Shown here piece after piece: positions 1,815 to 57,835 of a DNA stretch of 64,000 nucleotides (its first letter is position 1; each line of letters starts with the position of its first letter). The stretch comes from Octopus vulgaris (taxonomy: Eukaryota). Both the position numbers and the translations under genes were made by a program. A model generated the notes under the pieces. The model saw nothing but the letters and a program-made list of their open reading frames with translations. It was not told the origin of the DNA and did not search any database. The DNA lies in contig OX597815.1 of NCBI GenBank assembly GCA_951406725.2, positions 14,446,001-14,510,000 of the forward strand. Direction: 5' to 3'.

Positions 1815-2043
1815 AGACGCAGGAGTGGCTGTGTGGTAAGTAGCTTGCTAACCAACCACATGGTTCCGGGTTCAGTCCCACTGCGTGGCATCTTGGGCAA
1901 GGGTCTTCTGCTATACCCTCGGGCCGACCAATGCCTTGTGAGTGGATTTAAGAATAAGTCCCAGGGTCGATTTGGTCGACTAAAAGGCGGTGCTCCAGCA
2001 TGGCCGCAGTCAAATGACTGAAACAAGTAAAAGAATAAAGAGT
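1815..2043 (+). mobile_element. SINE family A, internally deleted
   Basis: Same head and tail as 1108-1528, middle missing. Confidence 0.88.
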
Positions 2044-2204
2044 ATACCCTAACATTATTCATTTACAGAGAAAATGAAATCCTAATTAAAAGACACATTT
2101 TCTTTTCATTTGCATTTTTAATTTATTTTATTGCTTCTTCAAATACTATTATGCGTTTCATTTTTAATAGTTAGAGTGATTCCCAGTAGGCATATGAATG
2201 AATG

Positions 2205-2589
2205 TGGAGGCGCAATGGCCCAGTGGTCAGGGCAGCGGACTCGCGGTCGTAAGATCGCGGTTTCGATTCCCAGACCGGGCGTTGTGAGTGTTTATTGAGC
2301 GAAAACACCTAAAGCTCCACGAGGCTCCGGCAGGGGATGGTGGTGATCCCTGCTGTACTCTTTCACCACAACTTTCTCTTACTCTTACTTCCTGTTTCTG
2401 TTGTACCTGTATTTCAAAGGGCCGGTCTTGTCACTCTCTGTGTCACGCTGAATATCCCCGAGAACTACGTTGAGGGTGCACGTGTCTGTGGAGTGCTCAG
2501 CCACTTACACGTTAATTTCACGAGCAAGCTGTTCCGTTGATTCGGATCAACCGGAACCCTCATCGTCGTAACCGACGGAGTGCTTCCAC
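2205..2589 (+). mobile_element. SINE family B (tRNA-derived head)
   Basis: GTGGAGGCGCAATGGCCCAGTGG (A-box-like) and GGTTTCGATTCCC (B-box-like); ends CGTAACCGACGGAGTGCTTCCA; repeated elsewhere in the window. Confidence 0.9.
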
Positions 2590-2713
2590 CATGAATGAAT
2601 AAGCGTCTACATGTAAATAGCTACACAGAACATATTAACACAGGGTTGCATGCACATACATATGTTAAACCGTTCAAATAAATACTTCTACATACAGATG
2701 CTGTCATATGGAG

Positions 2714-3082
2714 TGGAAGCACTCCGTCGATTACGACGACGAGGGTTCCGGTTGATCCGAATCAACGGAACAGCCTGCTCGTGAAATTAACGTGTAAGTG
2801 GCTGAGCACTCCACAGACACGTGTACCCTTAACGTAGTTCTCGGGGATATTCAGCGTGACACAGAGAGTGACAAGGCCGGCCCTTTGAAACAGGAAGTAA
2901 GAGTGAGAGAAAGTTGTGGTGAAAGAGTACAGCAGGGATCACCACCATCCCCTGCCGGAGCCTCGTGGAGCTTTTAGGTGTTTTCGCTCAATAAACACTC
3001 ACAACGCCCGGTCTGGGAATCGAAACCGCGATCCTATGACCGCGAGTCCGCTGCCCTAACCACTGGGCCATTACGCCTCCAC
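2714..3082 (-). mobile_element. SINE family B
   Basis: Reverse complement of 2205-2589. Confidence 0.9.
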
Positions 3083-3217
3083 AATGCTGTCATATATACA
3101 GTAAGCAGTTGAAACGAAAACAATGATATCAAATACATTTACGTGATAGGATCTACAAACGCAACTAGAAACTAACATACAGTCAGCGTAATGATGGTAA
3201 CTCCCTTTCTCTCTCTC

Positions 3218-3632
3218 TCTTTTTACGCTTTTACTTGTTTCAGTCATTTGACTGCGGCCATGCTGGAGCACCGCCTTTAGTCGAGCAAACCGACCCCCGG
3301 GACTTATTCTTTGTAAGCCCAGTGCTTATTCTATCGGTCTCTTTTGCCGAACCGCTAAGTTACGGGGACGTAAATACACCAGCATCGGTTGTCAAGCGAT
3401 GTTGGGGGGGACAAACACAGACACACAAACATATACACACACATACATATATATATACATATATATACGACAGGCTTCTTTCAGTTTCCGTCTACCAAAT
3501 CTACTCACAAGGCATTGATCAGCCCGGGGCTATAGCAGAAGACACCTGCCCAAGATGCCACGCAGTGGGACTGAACCCGGAACCATGTGGTTGGTTAGCA
3601 AGCTACTTACCACACAGCCACTCCTGCGCCTA
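3218..3632 (-). mobile_element. SINE family A
   Basis: Near-identical to 1108-1528. Confidence 0.9.
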
Positions 3633-6833: not shown

Positions 6834-6880
6834 GTCACTGATGAAATCCTAACATAGGATGGAAACTAGACCGGTTGATT
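6834..6880 (+). ncRNA. Degenerate hammerhead-like motif
   Basis: CTGATGA (6838), ATCCT/AGGAT stem II, GAAAC; stem III and cleavage triplet are disrupted. Confidence 0.4.
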
Positions 6881-17822: not shown

Positions 17823-18665
17823 ATTTTTTCAGTTATCGCCCCTCGATTTATGAATAACGTGAAAACGTGTTCCGTGCAATTTAGCATTTATATTAATTAT
17901 ACACTGGAAAAGAATTAATGAAAAGTATAATCTGATAACTGGAGAGAATATATTTGATGAAAACTTAGAAATTTCGTAGCAGTTTTCGAATTGTATAGAA
18001 AAGAACCCAGGTTGATACACAAGACTTGAGAATAAGAAGAAATGCAATTTTCAGTGAGGTGGTCATTAGCGTAATTATGGGAAAAGAATTTCATTTCGTT
18101 CTTTCTGTGGTTGTTACATGTTTGCTCACCTATGTATTTTGCTATGTTCATTATACTTCGCCAAGTCTCTATACAAACTTTCTATTCATAGCCATCAAAT
18201 ATTTTTATCTATTTTTATTTATTTTTTTAAAATTTTATCTATGCTAGTCGAATATTAATATATTTATTTAATTAATATAGATACCAATTTGTCTGGAACG
18301 CGTTGTTCCAAAGATGACACGAAATGTCGAAAGAGCTTGTCTGCAAATATAGAAGGATTGAGTGCGGAATCTAAAATTAAATTAAATATTTAAAATTAAT
18401 TACCGAAACTTTTTTTTTGTTTCTTTTTTTATTTATTTATTTATTTTTTCTCTCAAATAATTTCTCATTGCAAAGAAACAAAGGCCAGCCAATAGGAAAC
18501 GTTCTTATAGTGTGATGATGATTTCAGACATACAAATATATGAAGTTCTTCACTAAATGCCGATCGATGGCTAAGAGTGGTCAGTCCTCAAAGTGAATGG
18601 TTGGAAAAAGTAAACACACATACGCATGCGCGCGCTATACAAAATGACCGAAATGATATATACAT

Positions 18666-19115
18666 ATAGCAAATGATAGCGGTCGAAAATTAAATATAAG
18701 AGAAACTTTATTGCTCACAACGATCGTTACGACCCATTTTGCATCGATCCCTCGCGGGTAGTCGTGGTGTATCGCGCGATGTAGAAGTGTCTCCTCAGAT
18801 GATTTTCCAAGGAGTATCTCGTTAAATAAGCCCTCTTTCATTTGGTTCTTATACAGCATGCCATTCCTGCCCAACGGCTTAAACCTACGGTCACTAACAA
18901 CATGCTGTATTAGAACCGAGCAAAATAGGATGTATTTAACAAGATACTCCGTGTAAAAATCACATGACGAAAAACTTTTGTACCGAGAGATGCATCACAA
19001 CCAGTTGCACAGTACCCCACCTATGAGGGATCGAGGCACGATGGGTCGAAAAGATCGTTGTGAGCAATAAAGTTTCTCGTATATCCCATTTTCAGTCTCT
19101 GTCATTTGCTATATA
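18666..19115. mobile_element. MITE/fold-back element with ~95 bp imperfect TIRs
   Basis: gagaaactttattgctcacaacgatc pairs with gatcgttgtgagcaataaagtttctc. Confidence 0.8.
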
Positions 19116-21425: not shown

Positions 21426-21707
21426 TTATATTTATATATATATATACATATTCATACATATCGTCCGTCTCTATATATACATACATATATAAATAAAAAT
21501 AATTAGAAGAATCAGTTTTTAGACGGAGTCCAATAAATGTCATCAAATACATGGAACAGTTTGTGATACTAATATGGATTATTTATTTAATTTAACCAGA
21601 TACGTTATCATATTATATCAGCTGGAACTCATCAGTGGATATTAATTAAATATTTAAATATTTAAAGTTTGTGCCTTTAGTTTTATTCTTTGTAATCATA
21701 TTAAAAT

Positions 21708-22042
21708 AATTTCGTTTCCTAACTAATTTATATGTTATTCCTTTCACACGCCAATTCAAATTCAGTACTGAATTTTACAAGCGTAACTTTGTTAGTATTC
21801 AGTTACTTTCGCTCCTATGATTATCTACTAATTACTCCCTCCCTGTATATCTACGTCAACATCGCCACGATTCTCCATTGATGGCGATGTTTACCTACAC
21901 ATATAAGCAAGGAGTTCTGAGTGGATAATCATACGAACGAATGGAAGTGAATACTAACAAAATTACGCTTGTAAATTTCAGTTCTGAATTTGAATTGGTG
22001 AGTGAAAGGAATGAAATAAAAATTAGTTACAAAACGAAATTA
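21708..22042. mobile_element. MITE/fold-back element with ~130 bp imperfect arms
   Basis: ccaattcaaattcag...tttacaagcgtaa pairs with ttacgcttgtaaa...ctgaatttgaattgg. Confidence 0.8.
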
Positions 22043-24874: not shown

Positions 24875-24903
<29 letters not shown>

Positions 24904-24910
<7 letters not shown>

Positions 24911-25606
24911 TAATAATAATTAAGGGTTTAGCAACAAGTTGCTTGACCACATACAGAAAATTTTAGAAAGAGCAGCCAAAAGACTGCTAATTCTTTTTTC
25001 TACAAAAATGTGTCTCCACAGATAACAATATTTGTAATTCACATAGGCAAAAAGAAGAAAAATAATTAAATCAAACAGTCTTCGATTAATTATGGACGCG
25101 TTTCTGGATTATAATTATTAAAATTCATTTCCGTTGTCGACATAATATTTCGAGAATTATAAATCTGAAAATGATAGGAAGAGTTACCCCCTGTATTTCT
25201 GCAGTACTATCTTGTGACGCACATGGTAAACTTGGAGGGAAATACTAATTCACTCGTCTATATAACTATGGATATGCTGATTAACCTTTGTATGTTCTGA
25301 TGGCCCATGGTCAGAAAAACAAGGGGTAAGTTTTCCTAGCATTTTCAGATTTATAATTCTCGAAATATTATGTCGATAACGGAAATGAATTTCTATAATT
25401 CTAATCCAGAAACGCGTCCATAATTAATCGAAGACTTTGATTTCATTATTTTTCTTCTTTTTGCCTGTGAATTACAAATATTGTTGTCTGTGGAGACATA
25501 TTTTTGTAGAAAAAAAGAAATAGCAGTCTTTTGGCTGCTATTTCCAAAATTTTCGCTATTTGGTCAAGCAACTTGTTGCTAACCCTTTAATTATTATTAT
25601 AATTAT
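24904..25606. mobile_element. Fold-back element with ~295 bp arms, Penelope-like
   Basis: 24904-25200 is the reverse complement of about 25315-25606; arms contain GAAACGCGTC (hammerhead 3' half); bounded by (TA)n. Confidence 0.75.
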
Positions 25607-25728
25607 AAATAAAAAATAACTTTTTGTTTAAGTTTTTACCGAATATGGTTCTTTTCCCTACCGAAAACTACTTGGTAAAATTTGTTAATTTTATTAAATT
25701 AATAATTTTTTACCCTCTATCTGAATTG

Positions 25729-26318: not shown

Positions 26319-26356
<38 letters not shown>

Positions 26357-26434
26357 TTTGAGGGAATATTATTCCTAACTTACTGGGGAAAATTCAATTT
26401 AGAAATACTAAATCAAATTTCATAAAATATAATA

Positions 26435-27170
26435 TATATATAAAAATTAGAAAAAAACACCTTTTATCAATTCAAGATGAAAACTTAAATTACACCATCT
26501 AGAAAATTACATATAATAGAAATATTAAATATAAGATGAAAAATAATATAGCGATGATTAAGTAATGTGCAAAATAATATGCAAAATAATAAATAAAATG
26601 TATATATTTGGTAGAATATATACGTTTATTGTTATTGAAATATTATCATTTTTATATATATTGATAGTTATAAGTTATGATAGTTATTAATTATGATATC
26701 TATTTATTTAGAATGATTTATTATTATTTTTATAAAGGGATCTAACATATTACATATAATTTAATTTGAGAATTAATTTTGTTAGACAATACATTATTTA
26801 ATAATTAGGTGGTATATTTATCAAGTAGTTTTATATTTAAGTAAATTAGGTTTTATATTAATTGATATTTTGGTCAACTATATTATTGAGTGATATATTA
26901 AATCTATAGATACTACACATATATTAATTATATAGTTAGTTTATTTAATGGGTTTGTCTATATTTGAACCATTTCTTATTTTGATTCCAGTATTTATGGC
27001 TTGTACTAGCGTTGTGTATATTAATTAATTTTAAGGTTTTAGTATTAATTGCTTAATGGGTATTAGACTGTATTTCGATGTTTATTAAATAAATATATTG
27101 ATTAATAATCTGATTTAATGTATATAGTTTAAAGTGTTGTATTTAGTTTTCACTTAATGTATATTTTGTA

Positions 27171-27267
<97 letters not shown>

Positions 27268-27622
27268 TTTAAAGAATATATTTATATTTTTAAATATTAT
27301 TTGCGTATGTTTATTAATTAATTATTTTATTATTGTAGTTATTTTTTAACCTGATGAGTGGCTATATTTATATTGAAGTGATTTTACTACTACTGCTAAT
27401 ATTTTTACTATAATCATTTCTTAAATATAGCCACGAAACACGTGTCGTTATTCTACCAAATATATATACGTTTTATTTATTATTTTGCACATTACTTAAT
27501 CATCGGTATATTATTTTTTATCTTATATTTAATATTTCTATTATATGTAATTTTCTAGATGGTGTAATTTAATTGTTCATTTTGAATTGATAAAAGGTGT
27601 TTTTTTCTAATTTATATATATA
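26435..27622. mobile_element. AT-rich fold-back element (~175 bp arms) with hammerhead, Penelope-like
   Basis: 26438-26618 is the reverse complement of 27449-27620; TA runs at both ends. Confidence 0.8.
27347..27450 (+). ncRNA. Type I hammerhead ribozyme with long stem II
   Basis: taac-CTGATGA-GTGGCTATATTTA...TAAATATAGCCAC-GAAAC-ACGT-GTC-gtta; perfect 13 bp stem II, palindromic stem III, GUC cleavage site at 27444-27446. Confidence 0.88.
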
Positions 27623-28697
27623 AAACGACTGCCGTGTGAAAATTTAGACTGTTGAGTCACTTATATAACTTAAAGGCTAATAAATAATTTTATGAATATG
27701 TGAAGTGGGGTGTCCAGTTGTCTAAATATACCACTCTCGCTATCATTCTACAGAACTATTTAATCATATTCTATATCAATCTGTCTAAAAGTCAATCAAT
27801 TTGATGTTTGCCTGTCTTTTGTCTAGCTATAATTTCCAATTTAATAACTATGTTCAACGTTCGCCCGGTTTTATAACTCATGAAAGAAAACTAAAAAATA
27901 AAAGTTCAAAAATCTTTCTCCCCGTGGTTTTACTTCTATAAATTTCACTGCGATTCATACAGGAATTTATTAAAATCAAACTCTATGAGAACATGCAGTC
28001 GACAAAGACAAGTGAGAAAGCAAAATTATTTAAGTATTCACGAGCTAATGGCTGAAACAAAAAGTTACAAAGTTTTTATTATCGATTTTATATTTTAAAT
28101 ACAAGTCGTTTGACATTTTAATATATTCTTTCATATCATTTTTCTTCCATCGTAATTATTAACGTTTCAGAAATTTTGATGTCTGTGGACCGCCTCTCGG
28201 TTATAGTATTTTTTATTTTTTTTATTTCAGTATATTTAATTTTAAATATTACATTTTAAATATCAAATAGTTTTATATACATGTATTTTTTTTTCTTTTC
28301 GTATTTTTAATGCTTTTGGGTAGCACTCGTATATGAAGCTTTGAGGGCGGGAAGTTGGCAAGAAATAGAAAAAAAGATCGGTAATGTGTGTGATTAAATG
28401 TCTTACAGTATTTTGTTTCGTTTCATAGAGTTCTGAGTAGAAATCTCACCGGATGTGACTTTAATGAGGAAAGAAGCATTACCCTTATGATATCTAATTA
28501 TTTTCAGATTGAAGACACGATTAGGAGGTTAACAGAAAATTAGACTTTGTTAAAAGTACCAGTGACCAACTGGTGGTACTAAACCGAAGGATGGACGCAG
28601 TGGCATGTTCAGTTCATCGGACTGACTTCCATACTGTTTTCGTCTCTTCAGTTTCTCTCACATTGATCGAAACTATAATGAAGGGTACTTGCTCAAT

Positions 28698-39039: not shown

Positions 39040-39390
39040 TATGTTTCGACCAATGATTGGTCCAGGCCATGTCTAACTTAATAGCACCACCTGATAGGAT
39101 TATTTGAATCTTGTTTAAGTTCAGTTTTGTTTATGGTCCATTCAAGTAGTGAGTTTTTGTTGGGTGAGTTGTATCCAATTATGGGTGGCTTGTCTGGTAT
39201 TCCTTGAAGGAATCTATCCAGATTCCGTTTAAAGTTGATGGGATCCTGTTCCTGTTAAATAGGGCAGGGCCTGTTGAGGAAAAGAAATTATGTTGTAGTG
39301 TACATGTATGCTGTGATCTTGAATTGGGCAGGGGACGTATGGCCCGCGGTCCCAGTCTTGGATGAACCTTGAAGCTAATGTTCAGGTCAT
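39040..39390 (-). mobile_element. Degenerate CR1-like LINE 3' fragment
   Basis: Minus-strand remnants GPALFN and FKRNLDRFLQGIPDKP. Confidence 0.6.
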
Positions 39391-39395
39391 ACTAC

Positions 39396-39729
39396 TAATA
39401 TAGGATGAAGTTTTTTTACAGAAAAAAATTTCATCAAAAGAGTGGCAGCATATTAAAATACCTTTAAAGGTTAAAATTATAAACAACTTATAAACAAGGG
39501 CAAAAGAAAATTATTTTTATGCCAATATGCTGATAACAGACTTTTAAATCGTCAATTTCCACATATTATTATATACCCGCCACAAGTCTGTTATCAGCAT
39601 ATTGGCTTTGAAATAATTTTCTTTTGCCCTTGTTTATAAGTTGTTTATAATTTTAACCGTAAAGGTATTTTAATATGCTGCCACATTTTTTGATGAAATT
39701 TTTTTCTGTAATAAACTTCATCCTATATT

Positions 39730-39731
<2 letters not shown>
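39396..39731. repeat. Near-perfect palindrome (~147 bp arms, ~40 bp loop) abutting (TA)n
   Basis: taatataggatgaag...gataacagactt pairs with aagtctgttatc...cttcatcctatatta. Confidence 0.9.
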
Positions 39732-39787
<56 letters not shown>

Positions 39788-50471: not shown

Positions 50472-52619
50472 TCTATAATAAAAATCCCGTTCTGTCTGTG
50501 TACATGTGTATGTGTGTGTGTGTGTATGTAAAAGATTATAACGGCCGAATTTTTCAACTGATTTTCTCTAAACTGGAATCATACATTACTTACATTCCAG
50601 GGATGGTTTTAGACTCTTAAAGGTTTTCATATAATGTGTAACGGGGCCCCTGGAAGCAGAAAACACCCTTTCCTGGCTTATATGGAAAAGGGAGGTAACT
50701 TTTTGCGAAGTAACTTTCAGAAACTGATTGTCTCCCTTATATGCATTTGTCAAAAATTTATCAAAATCTCAAATAATATATAAATTAAAGATGTGTGCGT
50801 GTGTGTTCGCTTTTCAGGTGAAAACGGCTTCACCAATTGCTTCCATACTTGCGATGCGTGAATAAATTGACTTCGGACACATATTAGGCTCTTCATTTGA
50901 TTCTTTTATTAAAAATTTAGAATATTACTTTTTATATTAGATTCGCGTTGTTGAAAGTTTTTTAAAATATTTACTTTCGGTTTTCTAGTGTCAGTAACAC
51001 CTATATCTCTCTATATCTCTTTATCCATCTCTCTATCTCTATCTCTCTATCTATATATATATATCTCCATGTCTATCTCTATATTTATCTATCTCTCTGT
51101 ATCTATCTGTCTATATCTTATCTATCAATGTATATCTTTCTTATTTGTCTAACTAGCAAGCTCTCTGTCTCTCTTTCTCTCTCTCTCCCTCGATTTATAT
51201 CTCACTCACTCTTTATTGTTTTCACAGTAAGTTTTCAATCGCTATTTACAAACAGCAACGACAAATTACTGACAGAAAGAAGTTCACAATTACTAATGAA
51301 AGTAATTTCATAATTTACTGACAGAAGTAACTTCATAAATTTCACTACAATCTGTACACTTCGTTAAATTTGTCTACAAATTTCTTATTTATTTTTTCAA
51401 CGTTCTGTGTTTTTTTGTGTTTTTTTTTGGAATTACTGATTAAGAGTAGGTTCATATCTTACTGACAGAAGTGACTTCACAAATTTCACTTAAATCCGTA
51501 GACTTAGTTAATTTCCCTAAAAATTTCTTTTTCATTTTTGCAACGGTTTTGCGTTTTTCAGTTGTTAACGGCTTTTTTCTCTGGTTTCTTCGACACTGGC
51601 TCTTTGGTTCACTAAGTGACAAATTTCGCTTCAACCTTTACAATTCTTTTCTTTCCATAAAAATAGATTTACTTTCTGTCCGTCGTATTAAGAAATATAA
51701 TTTCCGTAACCCAATTATTTTCATTGTTTTCTATCTTTTGTTTACGTATGCCTAGAAGGAAAGTGTCAAATTTGTCTACAATGTTAAGGTCAGGCAAAAG
51801 AATTCTCTGACCAGAGAAAGAGAGACAGCTGCAGAAAGGGAAGCATACCAAGAAACGAATAGATTATGCACTGCAAAAGCCAGAGCATCTCAAAGGGAAG
51901 AACAGAGGTATGCACAGCTGACAAGGAATAGGATCTCCACTGCAGAACGAAGAGCAGTTGCAACATCTCAGGGAATCAATTATGATCTAGCAGTCTATTA
52001 TGCAGATGACACTGGAGTTTCCGTTGGTGCAATGACAACTGAGTGCATACATTGTAAAGCAAGGAAGTGGTCTGGAGAGACACCTGCACTGTGCTACAGT
52101 GGTGGAAAGGTTAAACCCCTTGCAGTTCCTCAACTTCCAGAGCCATTGAAGAAATTGTTGTCATCAACTGACCAAGATTCCAAGCACTTACAAAACAAAA
52201 TTAAACAATACAACGCTACGCTACAGATGACATCATTTGGAGCCGCAAGAGATTTAACTGAGCCAGGATTCATGCAAACTTTCAAGCCCCAAGGTCAGAT
52301 TTATCATCAGATTGGCTCTCTACTACCTCTGTCAAATGAATCACCAAAATCGGCCTTTCATTGTGTATAATCTGTACCTGTTTTTGTTTTTGCTTTATTT
52401 TGTTTTTGTCTTTTTTTTGTTATGAAATAAGCTAGACAAAACGTGTTTTTGAATTACGTGTATTTATTTAATATGCATATATGGGTTGAAAACTTGGAAA
52501 CTTATTAATGTAGAAAATTGGTATCTCCGCCATTAGTAGTTGAGACCTGCGTAATCTACACGGCATTTTTAAATTTCATTATTCTCTTTAATCCGGGCAA
52601 CACCGGATATTTCTGCTAG
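50472..52619 (+). mobile_element. Internally deleted Helitron
   Basis: 5' TCTATAATAAAAAT, 3' CCGGGCAACACCGG hairpin plus CTAG; carries an N-terminal Rep/Hel fragment. Confidence 0.85.
52032..52370 (+). pseudogene. Helitron Rep/helicase N-terminal zinc-finger fragment
   Basis: MTTECIHCKARKWSGE...CYSGGKV...IKQYNATLQMTSFGA...FKPQGQIYHQIGSLLP. Confidence 0.88.
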
Positions 52620-54387
52620 CATAAATATAAATCTATATTTAAAATATCAAAGTATGGGTTTAATTATAGAAAACCGTTTGGGCCCTTTATAGTAAATAAA
52701 AGCAGCAGCATGGGTTAAGGTTTAATGTGTAACTATAGTAGTCAGAAAGGAAAGTAAACATTTAATATCTATTTATTTATATTTGGAAAATACATATTTT
52801 CCCATGTGTTGACAAGAATATGTCTCTGAATCCCTGAGGTTAAGAAGAGGAAATTTTGCCGAGAGGATAAAAATGTTTCATTTAAGTAAAGAAAGCATTT
52901 TATATTATTAGCTTTATAGGAAGGTGCAGAAGCTATTATATCCTAATTTGTATAATTATTTGCATGCAATTTCTTCACAAATACTTACATGTATTTATTG
53001 TGTATAAGCGGGTAAATATATGTAGATGTATGCGCAAGATGTGATTATTGCTGCGTCCATTTATTCTTTACTATTTATTTTATTTTTGTATATATTTTTA
53101 TATATTTATATACGCATAAATATTTTGAACGTATTTATATTCATATATGCAATCAAATATATATATATATTTACCTATAACTCTACTCATTTTATTTTTT
53201 ATTTTTACTTACATATTTATACACCCTTATTACTTAAATTTTTATATATTTTCCCTAATAATAATATGATACTTAAATTTAAAGTTAATTACTATATATT
53301 ATTTCTATACTTTTTAATGATTACCCAGAATATATTACTCAAATTTTTATAAATATATTTACCCTAATATGATACTTATATATAAGGTCAATTACTATAT
53401 ATTGTTTATTTCTATACTTTTAATGAGTACCCAGAATATATTACTTAAATTTTTATAAATATATTTACCCTTATTTGATACTCGAATATACGGCTTATTA
53501 CAATAAATTACATTTCTTTATACCTTTAATGTTTCCCCAAAGCATATTATATTATTTTTTCATATTTACTTCTCTGAATATACTACTTTTCCCCTCTTTA
53601 TAAGGTTTATACAAAATCTTTCTATAAAATAATTGAAATAACCGAAATGCTCCATAAATTTAATACATAAAAATATAAAAGATGTAATGGTATATCTTTT
53701 TCCTACGTCCAACGAGATTCAACTGTATAATGAATTAATTATTTTAATTAATTTTTGAAGTCTGAATTGAAACAACTGTCAGAGATTATGTCTATTTTTG
53801 AAATTAGTAAATATGATTACTAATTGATTTATCTTTATTTTCATATTTTTCTTAAATAAATATAAACCTCGGATTATTTAATTACCTATTTTTGAGTATT
53901 AAAACTAATATTCAAAATATATACTACGTAAGAAACAAATAAATTCGTCGGAGTGGTAAGTAGCTTGCTTACCAACCACATGGTTCCGGGTTCATTCCCA
54001 CTGCGTGGTACATTGGGCAAGTGTCTTCTACTATAGCCTCGGGCCAACCAAAGACCTCTTCAGTTATTCGGCCATCGGAAAAATGCTATGAAAAATGACC
54101 CCGGAGTTTTATCATAGCTACCGAATAATTGTCACATATTAAATTTACAGATATATGTATATATATATATATATGACGGGAAGCTTTATGAAAATAGACA
54201 AAAGACGAAGGCAGGTGGAATACAAACAAACAATTGTATTAGTATGGCGCTCAGGAAATATAAATAAAACAAGTCTTTAACGGTTCGAGCCTATGCTCTT
54301 CAACAGAAAGATACACAGAGAAAAAACACAGAAAGAAGGAGAGAAAAAAAATATGCGTGCAGAAGCTAGCGAATCAATATATACATA

Positions 54388-54466
<79 letters not shown>

Positions 54467-55608
54467 TCTTCATTTGATTCTTTTATTAAAAATTTAGAAT
54501 ATTACTTTTTATATTAGATTCGCGTTGTTGAAAGTTTTTTAAAATATTTACTTTCGGTTTTCTAGTGTCAGTAACACCTATATCTCTCTATATCTCTTTA
54601 TCCATCTCTCTATCTCTATCTCTCTATCTATATATATATATCTCCATGTCTATCTCTATATTTATCTATCTCTCTGTATCTATCTGTCTATATCTTATCT
54701 ATCAATGTATATCTTTCTTATTTGTCTAACTAGCAAGCTCTCTGTCTCTCTTTCTCTCTCTCTCCCTCGATTTATATCTCACTCACTCTTTATTGTTTTC
54801 ACAGTAAGTTTTCAATCGCTATTTACAAACAGCAACGACAAATTACTGACAGAAAGAAGTTCACAATTACTAATGAAAGTAATTTCATAATTTACTGACA
54901 GAAGTAACTTCATAAATTTCACTACAATCTGTACACTTCGTTAAATTTGTCTACAAATTTCTTATTTATTTTTTCAACGTTCTGTGTTTTTTTGTGTTTT
55001 TTTTTACGGAATTACTGATTAAGAGTAGGTTCATATCTTACTGACAGAAGTGACTTCACAAATTTCACTTAAATCCGTAGACTTAGTTAATTTCCCTAAA
55101 AATTTCTTTTTCATTTTTGCAACGGTTTTGCGTTTTTCAGTTGTTAACGGCTTTTCTCTGGTTTCTTCGACACTGGCTCTTTGGTTCACTAAGTGACAAA
55201 TTTCGCTTCAACCTTTACAATTCTTTTCTTTCCATAAAAATAGATTTACTTTCTGTCCGTCGTATTAAGAAATATAATTTCCGTAACCCAATTATTTTCA
55301 TTGTTTTCTATCTTTTGTTTACGTATGCCTAGAAGGAAAGTGTCAAATTTGTCTACAATGTTAAGGTCAGGCAAAAGAATTCTCTGACCAGAGAAAGAGA
55401 GACAGCTGCAGAAAGGGAAGCATACCAAGAAACGAATAGATTATGCACTGCAAAAGCCAGAGCATCTCAAAGGGAAGAACAGAGGTATGCACAGCTGACA
55501 AGGAATAGGATCTCCACTGCAGAACGAAGAGCAGTTGCAACATCTCAGGGAATCAATTATGATCTAGCAGTCTATTATGCAGATGACACTGGAGTTTCCG
55601 TTGGTGCA

Positions 55609-55947
55609 ATGACAACTGAGTGCATACATTGTAAAGCAAGGAAGTGGTCTGGAGAGACACCTGCACTGTGCTACAGTGGTGGAAAGGTTAAACCCCTTGC
55701 AGTTCCTCAACTTCCAGAGCCATTGAAGAAATTGTTGTCATCAACTGACCAAGATTCCAAGCACTTACAAAACAAAATTAAACAATACAACGCTACGCTA
55801 CAGATGACATCATTTGGAGCCGCAAGAGATTTAACTGAGCCAGGATTCATGCAAACTTTCAAGCCCCAAGGTCAGATTTATCATCAGATTGGCTCTCTAC
55901 TACCTCTGTCAAATGAATCACCAAAATCGGCCTTTCATTGTGTATAA
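55609..55947 (+). pseudogene. Second copy of the Helitron Rep/Hel fragment
   Basis: Translation identical to 52032-52370. Confidence 0.88.
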
Positions 55948-57835
55948 TCTGTACCTGTTTTTGTTTTTGCTTTATTTTGTTTTTGTCTTTTTTTTTGTTA
56001 TGAAATAAGCTAGACAAAACGTGTTTTTGAATTACGTGTATTTATTTAATATGCATATATGGGTTGAAAACTTGGAAACTTATTAATGTAGAAAATTGGT
56101 ATCTCCGCCATTAGTAGTTGAGACCTGCGTAATCTACACGGCATTTTTAAATTTCATTATTCTCTTTAATCCGGGCAACACCGGATATTTCTGCTAGCAT
56201 AAATATAAATCTATATTTATAATATCAAAGTATGGGTTTAATTATAGAAAACCGTATGGGCCCTTAGTAGTAAATAAAAGTAGTAGCATGGGTTAAGGTT
56301 TAATGTGTAACTATAGTAGTCAGAAAGGAAAGTAAACACATCTATTTATCTATATTTGGAAAATACATATTTTTCCCATGTGTAGACAAGAATATGTCTC
56401 TGATCCCTGAGGTTAAGTAGAAGGAATTTTGCCGAGAGGATAAAAATGCTTCATTTAAGTAAAGGAAACATTTGTTATTATTAGCTTTATAGGAAGGTGC
56501 AGAAGCTATTACATCCTAATTTGTATAATTATTTGCATGCAATTTCTTCACAGATACTAACATGTATTTATTGTGTATAAGCGGGTAAATATATGTAGAT
56601 GTATGCACAAGATGTGATTATTGCTGCGTCCATTTATTCTTTACTATTTTATTTTTGTATATATTTTTATGTATTTCTATACGCATAAATATTTGAACGT
56701 ATTTATATTCATATATGCAATCAAATATATATATATTTACCTATAACTCTACTCATTTTATTTTTTTTTTCCTTACATATTTATACACCCTTATTACTTA
56801 AATTTTTATAAATATATTTACCCTAACAATAATATAATACTTAAATATAAGGTTAATTACTATATATTATTTCTATACTTTTTAATGATTACCCAGAATA
56901 TATTACTTAAATTTTTATAAATATATTTACCCTTATATTAATTTGATACTCAAATATACGGCTTATTACTATATATTACTTTTCTTTATACCTTTAATGT
57001 TTACCCAAAGTATATTATATTATTTTTTCATATTTACTTCTCTGAATATACTACCTTTCCCCTCTGTATAAGGTTTATACAAATTTTTTCTATAAAATAA
57101 TAGAAATAACCGAAATGCTCCATACATTTAATACATAAAAATATAAAAGATGTAATGGTATATCTTTTTCCTACGTCCAACGAGATTCAACTGTATAATG
57201 AATTAATTATTTTAATTAATTTTTGAAGTCTGAATTGAAACAACTGTCAGAGATTATGTCTATTTTTGAAATTAGTAAATATGATTACTAATTGATTTAT
57301 CTTTATTTTCATATTTTTCTTAAATAAATATAAACCTCGGATTATTTAATTAAAACTAATATTCAAAATATATACTACGTAAGAAACAAATAAATTCGTC
57401 GGAGTGGTAAGTAGCTTGCTTACCAACCACATGGTTCCGGATTCATTCCCACTGCGTGGTACATTGGGCAAGTGTCTTCTACTATAGCCTCGGGCCAACC
57501 AAAGACCTCTTCAGTTATTCGGCCATCGGAAAAATGCTATGAAAAATGACCCCGGAGTTTTATCATGGCTACCGAATAATTGTCACATATTAAATTTACA
57601 GATATATGTATATATATATATATGACGGGAAGCTTTATGAAAACAGACAAAAGACGAAGGCAGGTGGAATACAAACAAACAATTGTATTAGTATGGCGCT
57701 CAGGAAATATAAATAAAACAAGTCTTTAACGGTTCGAGCCTATGCTCTTCAACAGAAAGATACACAGAGAAAAAACACAGAAAGAAGGAGAGAAAAAAAT
57801 ATGCGTGCAGAAGCTAGCGAATCAATATATACATA

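Follow-up and report, generated by a model that had tools for sequence, protein, structure and literature searches.

A head-to-head insertion of a Hydra-type Penelope-like element in Octopus vulgaris, with a short inverted arm likely copied from hammerhead-cut RNA

The window analysed here, a 64,000-nt stretch of the Octopus vulgaris genome, contains an endonuclease-bearing Penelope-like element (PLE) of the Hydra-clade type, inserted head to head. We consider it likely that the short inverted arm of this insertion was copied from RNA cut by the hammerhead ribozyme of the element, and that the long arm was copied from uncut, unspliced RNA. An earlier note on this DNA had already proposed that the left arm stems from the 3′ cleavage product; the ends of genomic copies throughout the family, presented below, argue for such an origin.

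MATERIALS AND METHODS

Positions relative to the ribozyme are numbered such that +1 is the first base 3′ of the predicted hammerhead cut (27447 in the window). Family A denotes the PLE family of the window, and family B a sister PLE family in the same genome. The window stretch has 2507 candidate matches in the 2.8-Gb genome, and one 25-mer of family A has 2510 exact genomic matches. The first 30 loci, selected for holding the ribozyme, were a small, biased set in which the ends of six partner arms (27316, 27385, ~27449, 27462, 27486 and 27579) looked scattered; they were replaced by anchored samples. The 101-copy set consists of the first 100 matches listed for a 25-mer near +100, together with one partner arm from fetched DNA. 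Each of its copies was extended upstream against real copies, and five end calls were corrected by hand (L107 minus, L061, L051, L081 minus and L071); both arms of one insertion are counted separately in this set, so that P values are overstated. Two family A samples were anchored on patterns at +5, with the upstream bases scored by eye: set 1 holds the first 100 of 751 matches listed, and set 2, from another subfamily, all 97 matches, one pair of which is duplicated. For family B, the sample showing ends at +8 to +22 under-samples read-through copies, the leading W of the search pattern often falling on C, and a second sample of 100 copies reaching +3 was made to offset this bias. A script check of the ends at 60 stored loci mostly agreed with the calls made by eye, shifting three mismatched ends (L145, L250 and L274); the script cannot handle gapped read-through copies. 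Papers are cited for the parts of their text that were consulted.

RESULTS

Structure of the insertion

The left flank of the insertion is a (TA)n microsatellite (26320..26349), regarded as the target in view of the (TA)n tracts that adjoin other family copies. It is followed, on the minus strand, by an optional 3′ tail of ~85 nt (26350..26434) and by the inverted pLTR arm itself (26435..26618), which spans +3 to +176 from the predicted cut. In a self-comparison of the window, 26618..26435 matches 27449..27622 at 89.7% identity over 184 columns (E 6e-67). The tail prolongs the pLTR in other copies (L008, L009, L011, L012, L014, L017-L019 and others) and is missing from the right copy of the window. 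The arm had been described in the earlier note as matching only the sequence from about 27449 onward; this is accurate at the ribozyme side, where the arm stops at +3, but at its other end the left arm continues, with the tail, to ~26350.

The arm and the right copy are separated by a 13-nt forward repeat of +13 to +25 (26615..26627, plus strand), which overlaps the arm end by 4 nt and looks like a templated insert at a microhomology junction. The right copy (26626..27622, plus strand) is a 5′-truncated direct copy made up of the AT-rich non-coding region downstream of the ORF and the pLTR; it begins ~820 nt upstream of the cut, reads through the ribozyme and matches other copies (L002, L007, L011, L017, L183, L184, L186 and L188). 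Within it are an internal (TA)n/(GATA)n tract that varies among copies (27175..27267) and a probable 3′ splice acceptor, a TAG preceded by a U-rich stretch (27336..27338, plus strand), located 12 nt before the ribozyme core. On the right, the element runs into (TA)n (27615..27624) at the 3′ end common to tail-less copies. The 3′ end of family A copies thus takes one of two fixed forms, tailed or tail-less, in either case adjoining (TA)n, and the 5′ end varies. No target-site duplication is readable inside (TA)n. A single arm ending at +3 could be due to chance, while the copy-wide counts given below are not; from the measured rates, an end at +3 is about ten times likelier in the cluster that follows the cut than by background truncation.

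A second head-to-head inverted element is found beside (TA)n at 24899-25611 in the window, with arms of ~300 nt and a 110-nt spacer; the spacer holds a CTGATG...GAAA-like motif near 25298-25320, possibly from another PLE family. Self-comparison also revealed further self-inverted repeats at 1950-3311, 39389-39737, 21707-22042 and 18664-19114. A direct duplication of ~2.6 kb (50881-53454 and 54458-57028) has 96.8% identity between its copies.

The hammerhead ribozyme

The intact hammerhead claimed previously was borne out, with canonical core, stem II, palindrome and GTC all present. According to the sequence and RNAfold, it is a minimal type I hammerhead (27347..27450, plus strand) with a predicted cut at 27446/27447. 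Its parts, all on the plus strand, are a 4-bp helix I (27347-50/27447-50), the core CTGATGA (27351-57), a perfect 13-bp helix II (27358-70/27422-34), the GAAA (27435-38), an 8-nt palindrome that makes up helix III (27438-45) and the GTC cleavage triplet (27444-46), so that the sequence of the window has every component of the type I definition (CUGANGA...GAAA...NUH with helices I-III). RNAfold recovered helix II, the 51-nt loop of which is partly paired (9 more bp), and did not recover helices I and III; the computed duplex of the helix III palindrome has an energy of -10.3 kcal/mol. Rfam gave no match for the hammerhead at gathering score or E<=10, a search that may overlook minimal hammerheads carrying long inserts. 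Among the 38 stored copies matched by script, the CTGATGA core is intact in 36, pair 2 of helix II is T-A in 31 and C-G in 6 (one two-sided change), and pair 4 is mismatched in 10. Family B has a palindrome of different sequence at the same place, imperfect in some of its variants. Dimeric cleavage through helix III, an idea taken from work on minimal hammerheads (PMC4209133), would be plausible in view of that work and of these palindromes.

Three more CTGATGA motifs occur on the plus strand of the window (6838, 24712 and 63188), with GAAAC within ~25 nt, and could be decayed hammerheads; at 6838, CTGATGA and GAAAC enclose a short hairpin.

A Penelope-like element with Hydra-clade features

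The earlier note was right about the ribozyme and the arm and did not recognise the element as a PLE. Longer family A copies carry an RT and a GIY-YIG-type endonuclease upstream of the AT-rich non-coding region. The family A ORFs are broken in the copies read, and those of L181/L182 were connected to the upstream region of the window. Their motifs were read by eye; Pfam gave no match for the family A RT and endonuclease fragments, and a PDB sequence search returned low-complexity matches only. Family B has intact ORFs of 828-862 aa and its own hammerhead of different sequence, and the endonucleases of the two families are ~66% identical. Homologues carry PF26215, the named ones being from cephalopods. 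The overall organization is that of an EN+ PLE: an RT with a C-terminal GIY-YIG-type endonuclease upstream of the pLTR (as an intact ORF in family B), partial tandems, an inverted 5′ copy and an optional tail.

Within the EN+ PLEs, the CxCX5C linker, DKT, the terminal CxxC/CxH and the (TA)n targeting appear to fit the definition of the Hydra clade given in the text of Craig et al. (2021, PMC8557442). L201 has CTCRDKSNC, SDKT, CYLC and CRH, and CTCRDKTTC is found in L171 and SDKT in L182. As described there, Hydra-clade elements share with ours the RT with its C-terminal GIY-YIG-type endonuclease and these motifs, as well as the (TA)n targets, the pLTR hammerhead, the inverted 5′-truncated copy and the tail. 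They differ in having RWK, where KWK is present here, in being 'generally <3 kb', whereas the octopus units are several kb long (the ribozyme-to-ribozyme distance in family B is 6.0-8.0 kb), and in the length of the tail, 30-40 nt versus ~85 nt in family A.

Two other assignments were rejected. A metazoan non-LTR retrozyme, which consists of short non-coding units in tandem, each with a canonical type I hammerhead, does not apply, the ribozyme being in the pLTR of a protein-coding element and only a partial tandem having been seen (L212), and the PLE ORF beside L068 belongs to a different family. This separate, frameshifted PLE (L068:81-2400) has an RT (PF00078) and a CxxxxCxxC linker, ends at a (CA)n tract, and is Neptune-like by a motif taken from the text of PMC8557442. 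Long poly-asparagine tracts separate RT and endonuclease in L201:1214-3769 and L159, resembling the N-rich inserts described in rotifer Penelope elements (PMC3846280). The repeat was also found in sequencing-run contigs of three organisms (four runs), which as contigs cannot show RNA ends.

Copy ends of family A around the predicted cut

When copies were aligned and their ends plotted relative to the GUC, as the earlier note had suggested, the ends were not randomly scattered but peaked at +1 and dropped directly upstream. In the 101-copy set, 12 copies ended at +61 to +100, 10 at +31 to +60 and 67 at +1 to +30; only 12 of the 101 pass the cut, with 1 end at -1 to -30, 3 at -31 to -100 and 8 beyond. 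The end rate is thus 4.5% per base in +1 to +30 versus 0.3-0.5% in every other zone. AT content does not explain this excess: the region +61 to +100 is more AT-rich than +1 to +30 (95% versus 80%), yet its end rate is low. In the 20 head-to-head pairs of this set, none of the 40 arms reaches upstream of +1, and 33 have their ends within +1 to +30.

The two anchored samples resolve the peak. Set 1 has 1 end at +5, 4 at +4, 7 at +3 (including the arm of the window), 3 at +2 and 12 at +1, followed by 10 over -1 to -31; that is, 12 of the 85 copies at risk end at +1 as against 10 of 73 over -1 to -31, a 29-fold per-base rate. In set 2 the corresponding ends number 3, 4, 1, 6 and 21 (two of the last being the duplicate), with 12 over -1 to -31, giving 21/83 versus 12/62 and a 36-fold per-base rate. 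Ends at -1 to -5 number only 2 in set 1 and 3 in set 2. The recurrence of the +1 peak in separate subfamilies speaks against random scatter. From these counts we infer self-cleavage at the GUC (NUH) site of the family A hammerhead, and cleavage that would be partial, given that 63 of 100 copies reaching +5 in set 1 and 50 of 97 in set 2 read through.

T directly precedes +1 in 27 of 33 ends, A in 5 and G in 1, at a position where the template base is C. The T is often TT, even inside TA runs, and looks untemplated, which likely reflects 1-3 A added to the cDNA. A reading by the script of four TT-preceded ends as -2 ends altered by CpG decay was rejected, because 16 TT ends stand against 1 undecayed TC end and only about one in ten read-through copies is decayed.

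The bulk of family A ends falls at +8 to +25, around a TA palindrome at +13 to +22 that by itself favours joining and probably shapes where most joins fall. This counts against copying from cut RNA, as do seven inverted arms that extend into the ribozyme or right through it (L006, L022, L087, L117, L152, L157 and L212) and the arm of the window, which ends at +3, not +1. No clear spliced copy of family A was seen among the first 100 of 264 matches listed, of which ~8/100 end <=12 nt upstream of the core, and the family A transcription start was sought among the same 100 of 264 copies and not located.

In one subfamily (L066, L111, L112, L212 and L213), the acceptor AG before the ribozyme is lost and helix II has mismatches; this is the sequence type with the strongest +1 peak (set 2). 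At G000:C22:32533778-32533835, two arms that both reach just upstream of the cut are joined exactly through the helix III palindrome.

Copy ends, splicing and transcription start in family B

Family B ends gather at +8 to +22 downstream of the cut in the sample biased against read-through. Among the 100 copies reaching +3, one each ends at +1, -5 and -21 and 97 read through, such that upstream ends are rare (2/99 over -1 to -31). Family B therefore repeats the asymmetry between downstream and upstream, whereas the sharp +1 peak is absent (1/100), which counts against the cut-RNA reading. The GC-rich first seven bases of family B could force trimming; an RT stop at helix I fits equally well.

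Among 100 family B copies with the front edge of the ribozyme, scored by eye, 45 have the genomic intron end, 47 have a spliced first exon and 8 have neither. The spliced copies stop within the first exon (<=30 nt), near an initiator-like motif, and in two long copies (L205 and L237) this exon and a GT donor are found 1.07-1.16 kb upstream. The spliced copies therefore place the start site upstream of the ribozyme, away from the cut, and show that sense RNA serves as template. Moreover, they show that DNA ends derived from a defined end of the RNA are spread over ~0-25 nt, a width equal to that of the cluster following the cut. The site equivalent to the acceptor-like TAG of family A is spliced in family B.

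Five family B insertions have a G before the start A, possibly derived from the cap. The 47/100 spliced copies (L219, L222, L233, L244 and L245 being loci of this kind) occur in a group of elements known for keeping introns.

DISCUSSION

The formation of the insertion can be pictured by analogy with an anole PLE, for which in vitro work describes how both target strands are nicked and extended, and how the tail results from the use of two internal RT start sites (PMC11167929). That is, the enzyme of the element would nick both strands of the target, and one cDNA would start per nick from internal sites of the RNA. Partial self-cleavage, which may involve two RNAs paired through the palindrome, would yield RNA with a 5′-OH; a cDNA made on this cut RNA would run off at +1 and likely gain 1-3 untemplated A. 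The two cDNA ends would then likely be joined via AT-rich microhomology, with 0-30 nt trimmed, to give the inverted arms. In the window, cut RNA would be the likely template of the tailed short arm and uncut, unspliced RNA that of the long arm; alternatively, both arms could derive from the pair of pLTRs in a single tandem transcript.

Ends near the cut could also arise without cleavage, if the RT stalled at a folded, uncut ribozyme or at a bound protein. The ends of family B at +8 to +22 would be consistent with arrest at the foot of its GC-rich helix I and subsequent trimming, and the anole PLE protein is reported to act on the equivalent RNA region (PMC11167929). In family A, however, helix I has only 3-4 AU-rich pairs, and the 13-bp helix II, which starts at -13, is hardly marked by ends (2/73 and 0/62 at -11 to -14 in sets 1 and 2, respectively). 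The peak at +1 lies instead at the far end of helix I and carries the extra T that is characteristic of run-off at a free end, so that stalling appears unlikely. A sequence hot spot, in which the TA-rich palindrome at +13 to +22 favours microhomology joins whatever the RNA end, would account for most ends in the 101-copy set lying at +8 to +25, a zone with four 6-nt palindromes, and for the junction of the window itself, which uses the +13 to +25 zone. We regard it as quite improbable nevertheless: it does not account for a peak at exactly +1 in subfamilies whose downstream sequences differ, the equally palindromic and more AT-rich region -100 to -149 has only 0.5% of ends per base (with few copies at risk), and family B shows the same asymmetry without the TA run.

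It is very improbable that transcription starts at +1/+2, from a pLTR promoter, and coincides with the cut by chance, in which case the G at +1 might be derived from the cap. PLE pLTRs are reported to hold internal promoters (PMC2377424), and the search for the family A start located none; yet the family B start lies upstream of an intron ending just before the ribozyme, Drosophila Penelope has the same intron placement (PMC4209133), and family A has an acceptor-like site at the equivalent place. Furthermore, +1 ends have gained a T, whereas the five insertions at the family B start, a small sample, show G, which could also be derived from the partner. The least probable explanation, in our view hardly to be entertained, is a single truncated master copy that began at +1 and was amplified as a short non-autonomous element. 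The short copies do run into the thousands (2510 exact matches of the one 25-mer), but +1 ends recur in no fewer than three subfamilies, each marked by diagnostic bases of its own, and have unrelated upstream flanks, and the short copies have no upstream promoter.

Among PLEs, inverted 5′ copies, tails and hammerheads in the pLTR are commonplace, and 5′ junctions defined by a ribozyme are known for R2. The HDV-like ribozyme of R2, as presented by Eickbush et al. (2013, PMC3774820), resembles the family A case in that 5′ junctions reflect the cut, with untemplated bases, which the R2 RT adds on run-off, and microhomology joins. In R2, however, the cut frees the full-length element from rRNA, whereas in family A it lies inside the terminal repeat, is partial, and is associated mostly with stubs of 170-260 nt and head-to-head pairs. 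The minimal PLE hammerheads of Cervera and de la Pena (2014, PMC4209133) are likewise of type I, with a long helix II, a short helix I and a palindromic helix III; a dimer is proposed for them, and, as is the case for Drosophila Penelope, an intron ends immediately 5′ of helix I. Helix II of the window (13 bp and a 51-nt partly paired loop) is longer than in the forms described there, and there is no extra base after A9. That paper calls minimal hammerheads weakly active in vitro and speaks of an 'absence of in vivo evidence', and in PMC8557442 the function of the HHR in EN+ PLEs is 'still unclear', with no 5′ ends mapped to the cut in the parts of its text consulted. The anole Poseidon element PAc (Frangieh et al. 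2024, PMC11167929) has in common with our elements two internal RT start sites, double-strand nicking and extension, and AT-rich targets. It differs in that, according to the text consulted, cleavage is dispensable in vitro, uncut RNA is the main template and no RNA reads end at the cut, whereas most sampled short copies of family A look derived from cut RNA. The PAc findings and the low activity in vitro (PMC4209133) count against the cut-RNA reading. The literature covered, which did not extend to the Terminon paper (Arkhipova 2017) or the 2003 intron paper, yielded no account of PLE copies whose ends coincide with the hammerhead cut, nor of intron-less or spliced genomic PLE copies.

With somewhat less confidence than for the window's own insertion, though still as the better bet, we favour a joint reading, in which PLE genomes would record three RNA templates at base resolution: long unspliced RNA, short RNA spliced from the promoter, and hammerhead-cut RNA. 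Minimal PLE hammerheads would then cleave in the germ line and determine how large most insertions become, an inverted pLTR would consist of two sense-strand cDNAs joined at their ends rather than arise by antisense self-priming, and PLE introns would not always be retained. The findings bear on how inverted pLTRs form, and the spliced copies of family B bear on the claim that PLEs keep introns. A pile-up of copy ends at the scissile bond is a readout of ribozyme activity from the genome only, applicable to any assembly, and the pile-up at +1 names the exact RNA ends to be expected. As to whether minimal PLE hammerheads cut in vivo, the copy ends offer indirect but fairly strong evidence: judging from these genomic ends, the long-puzzling PLE hammerhead likely cuts in living cells.
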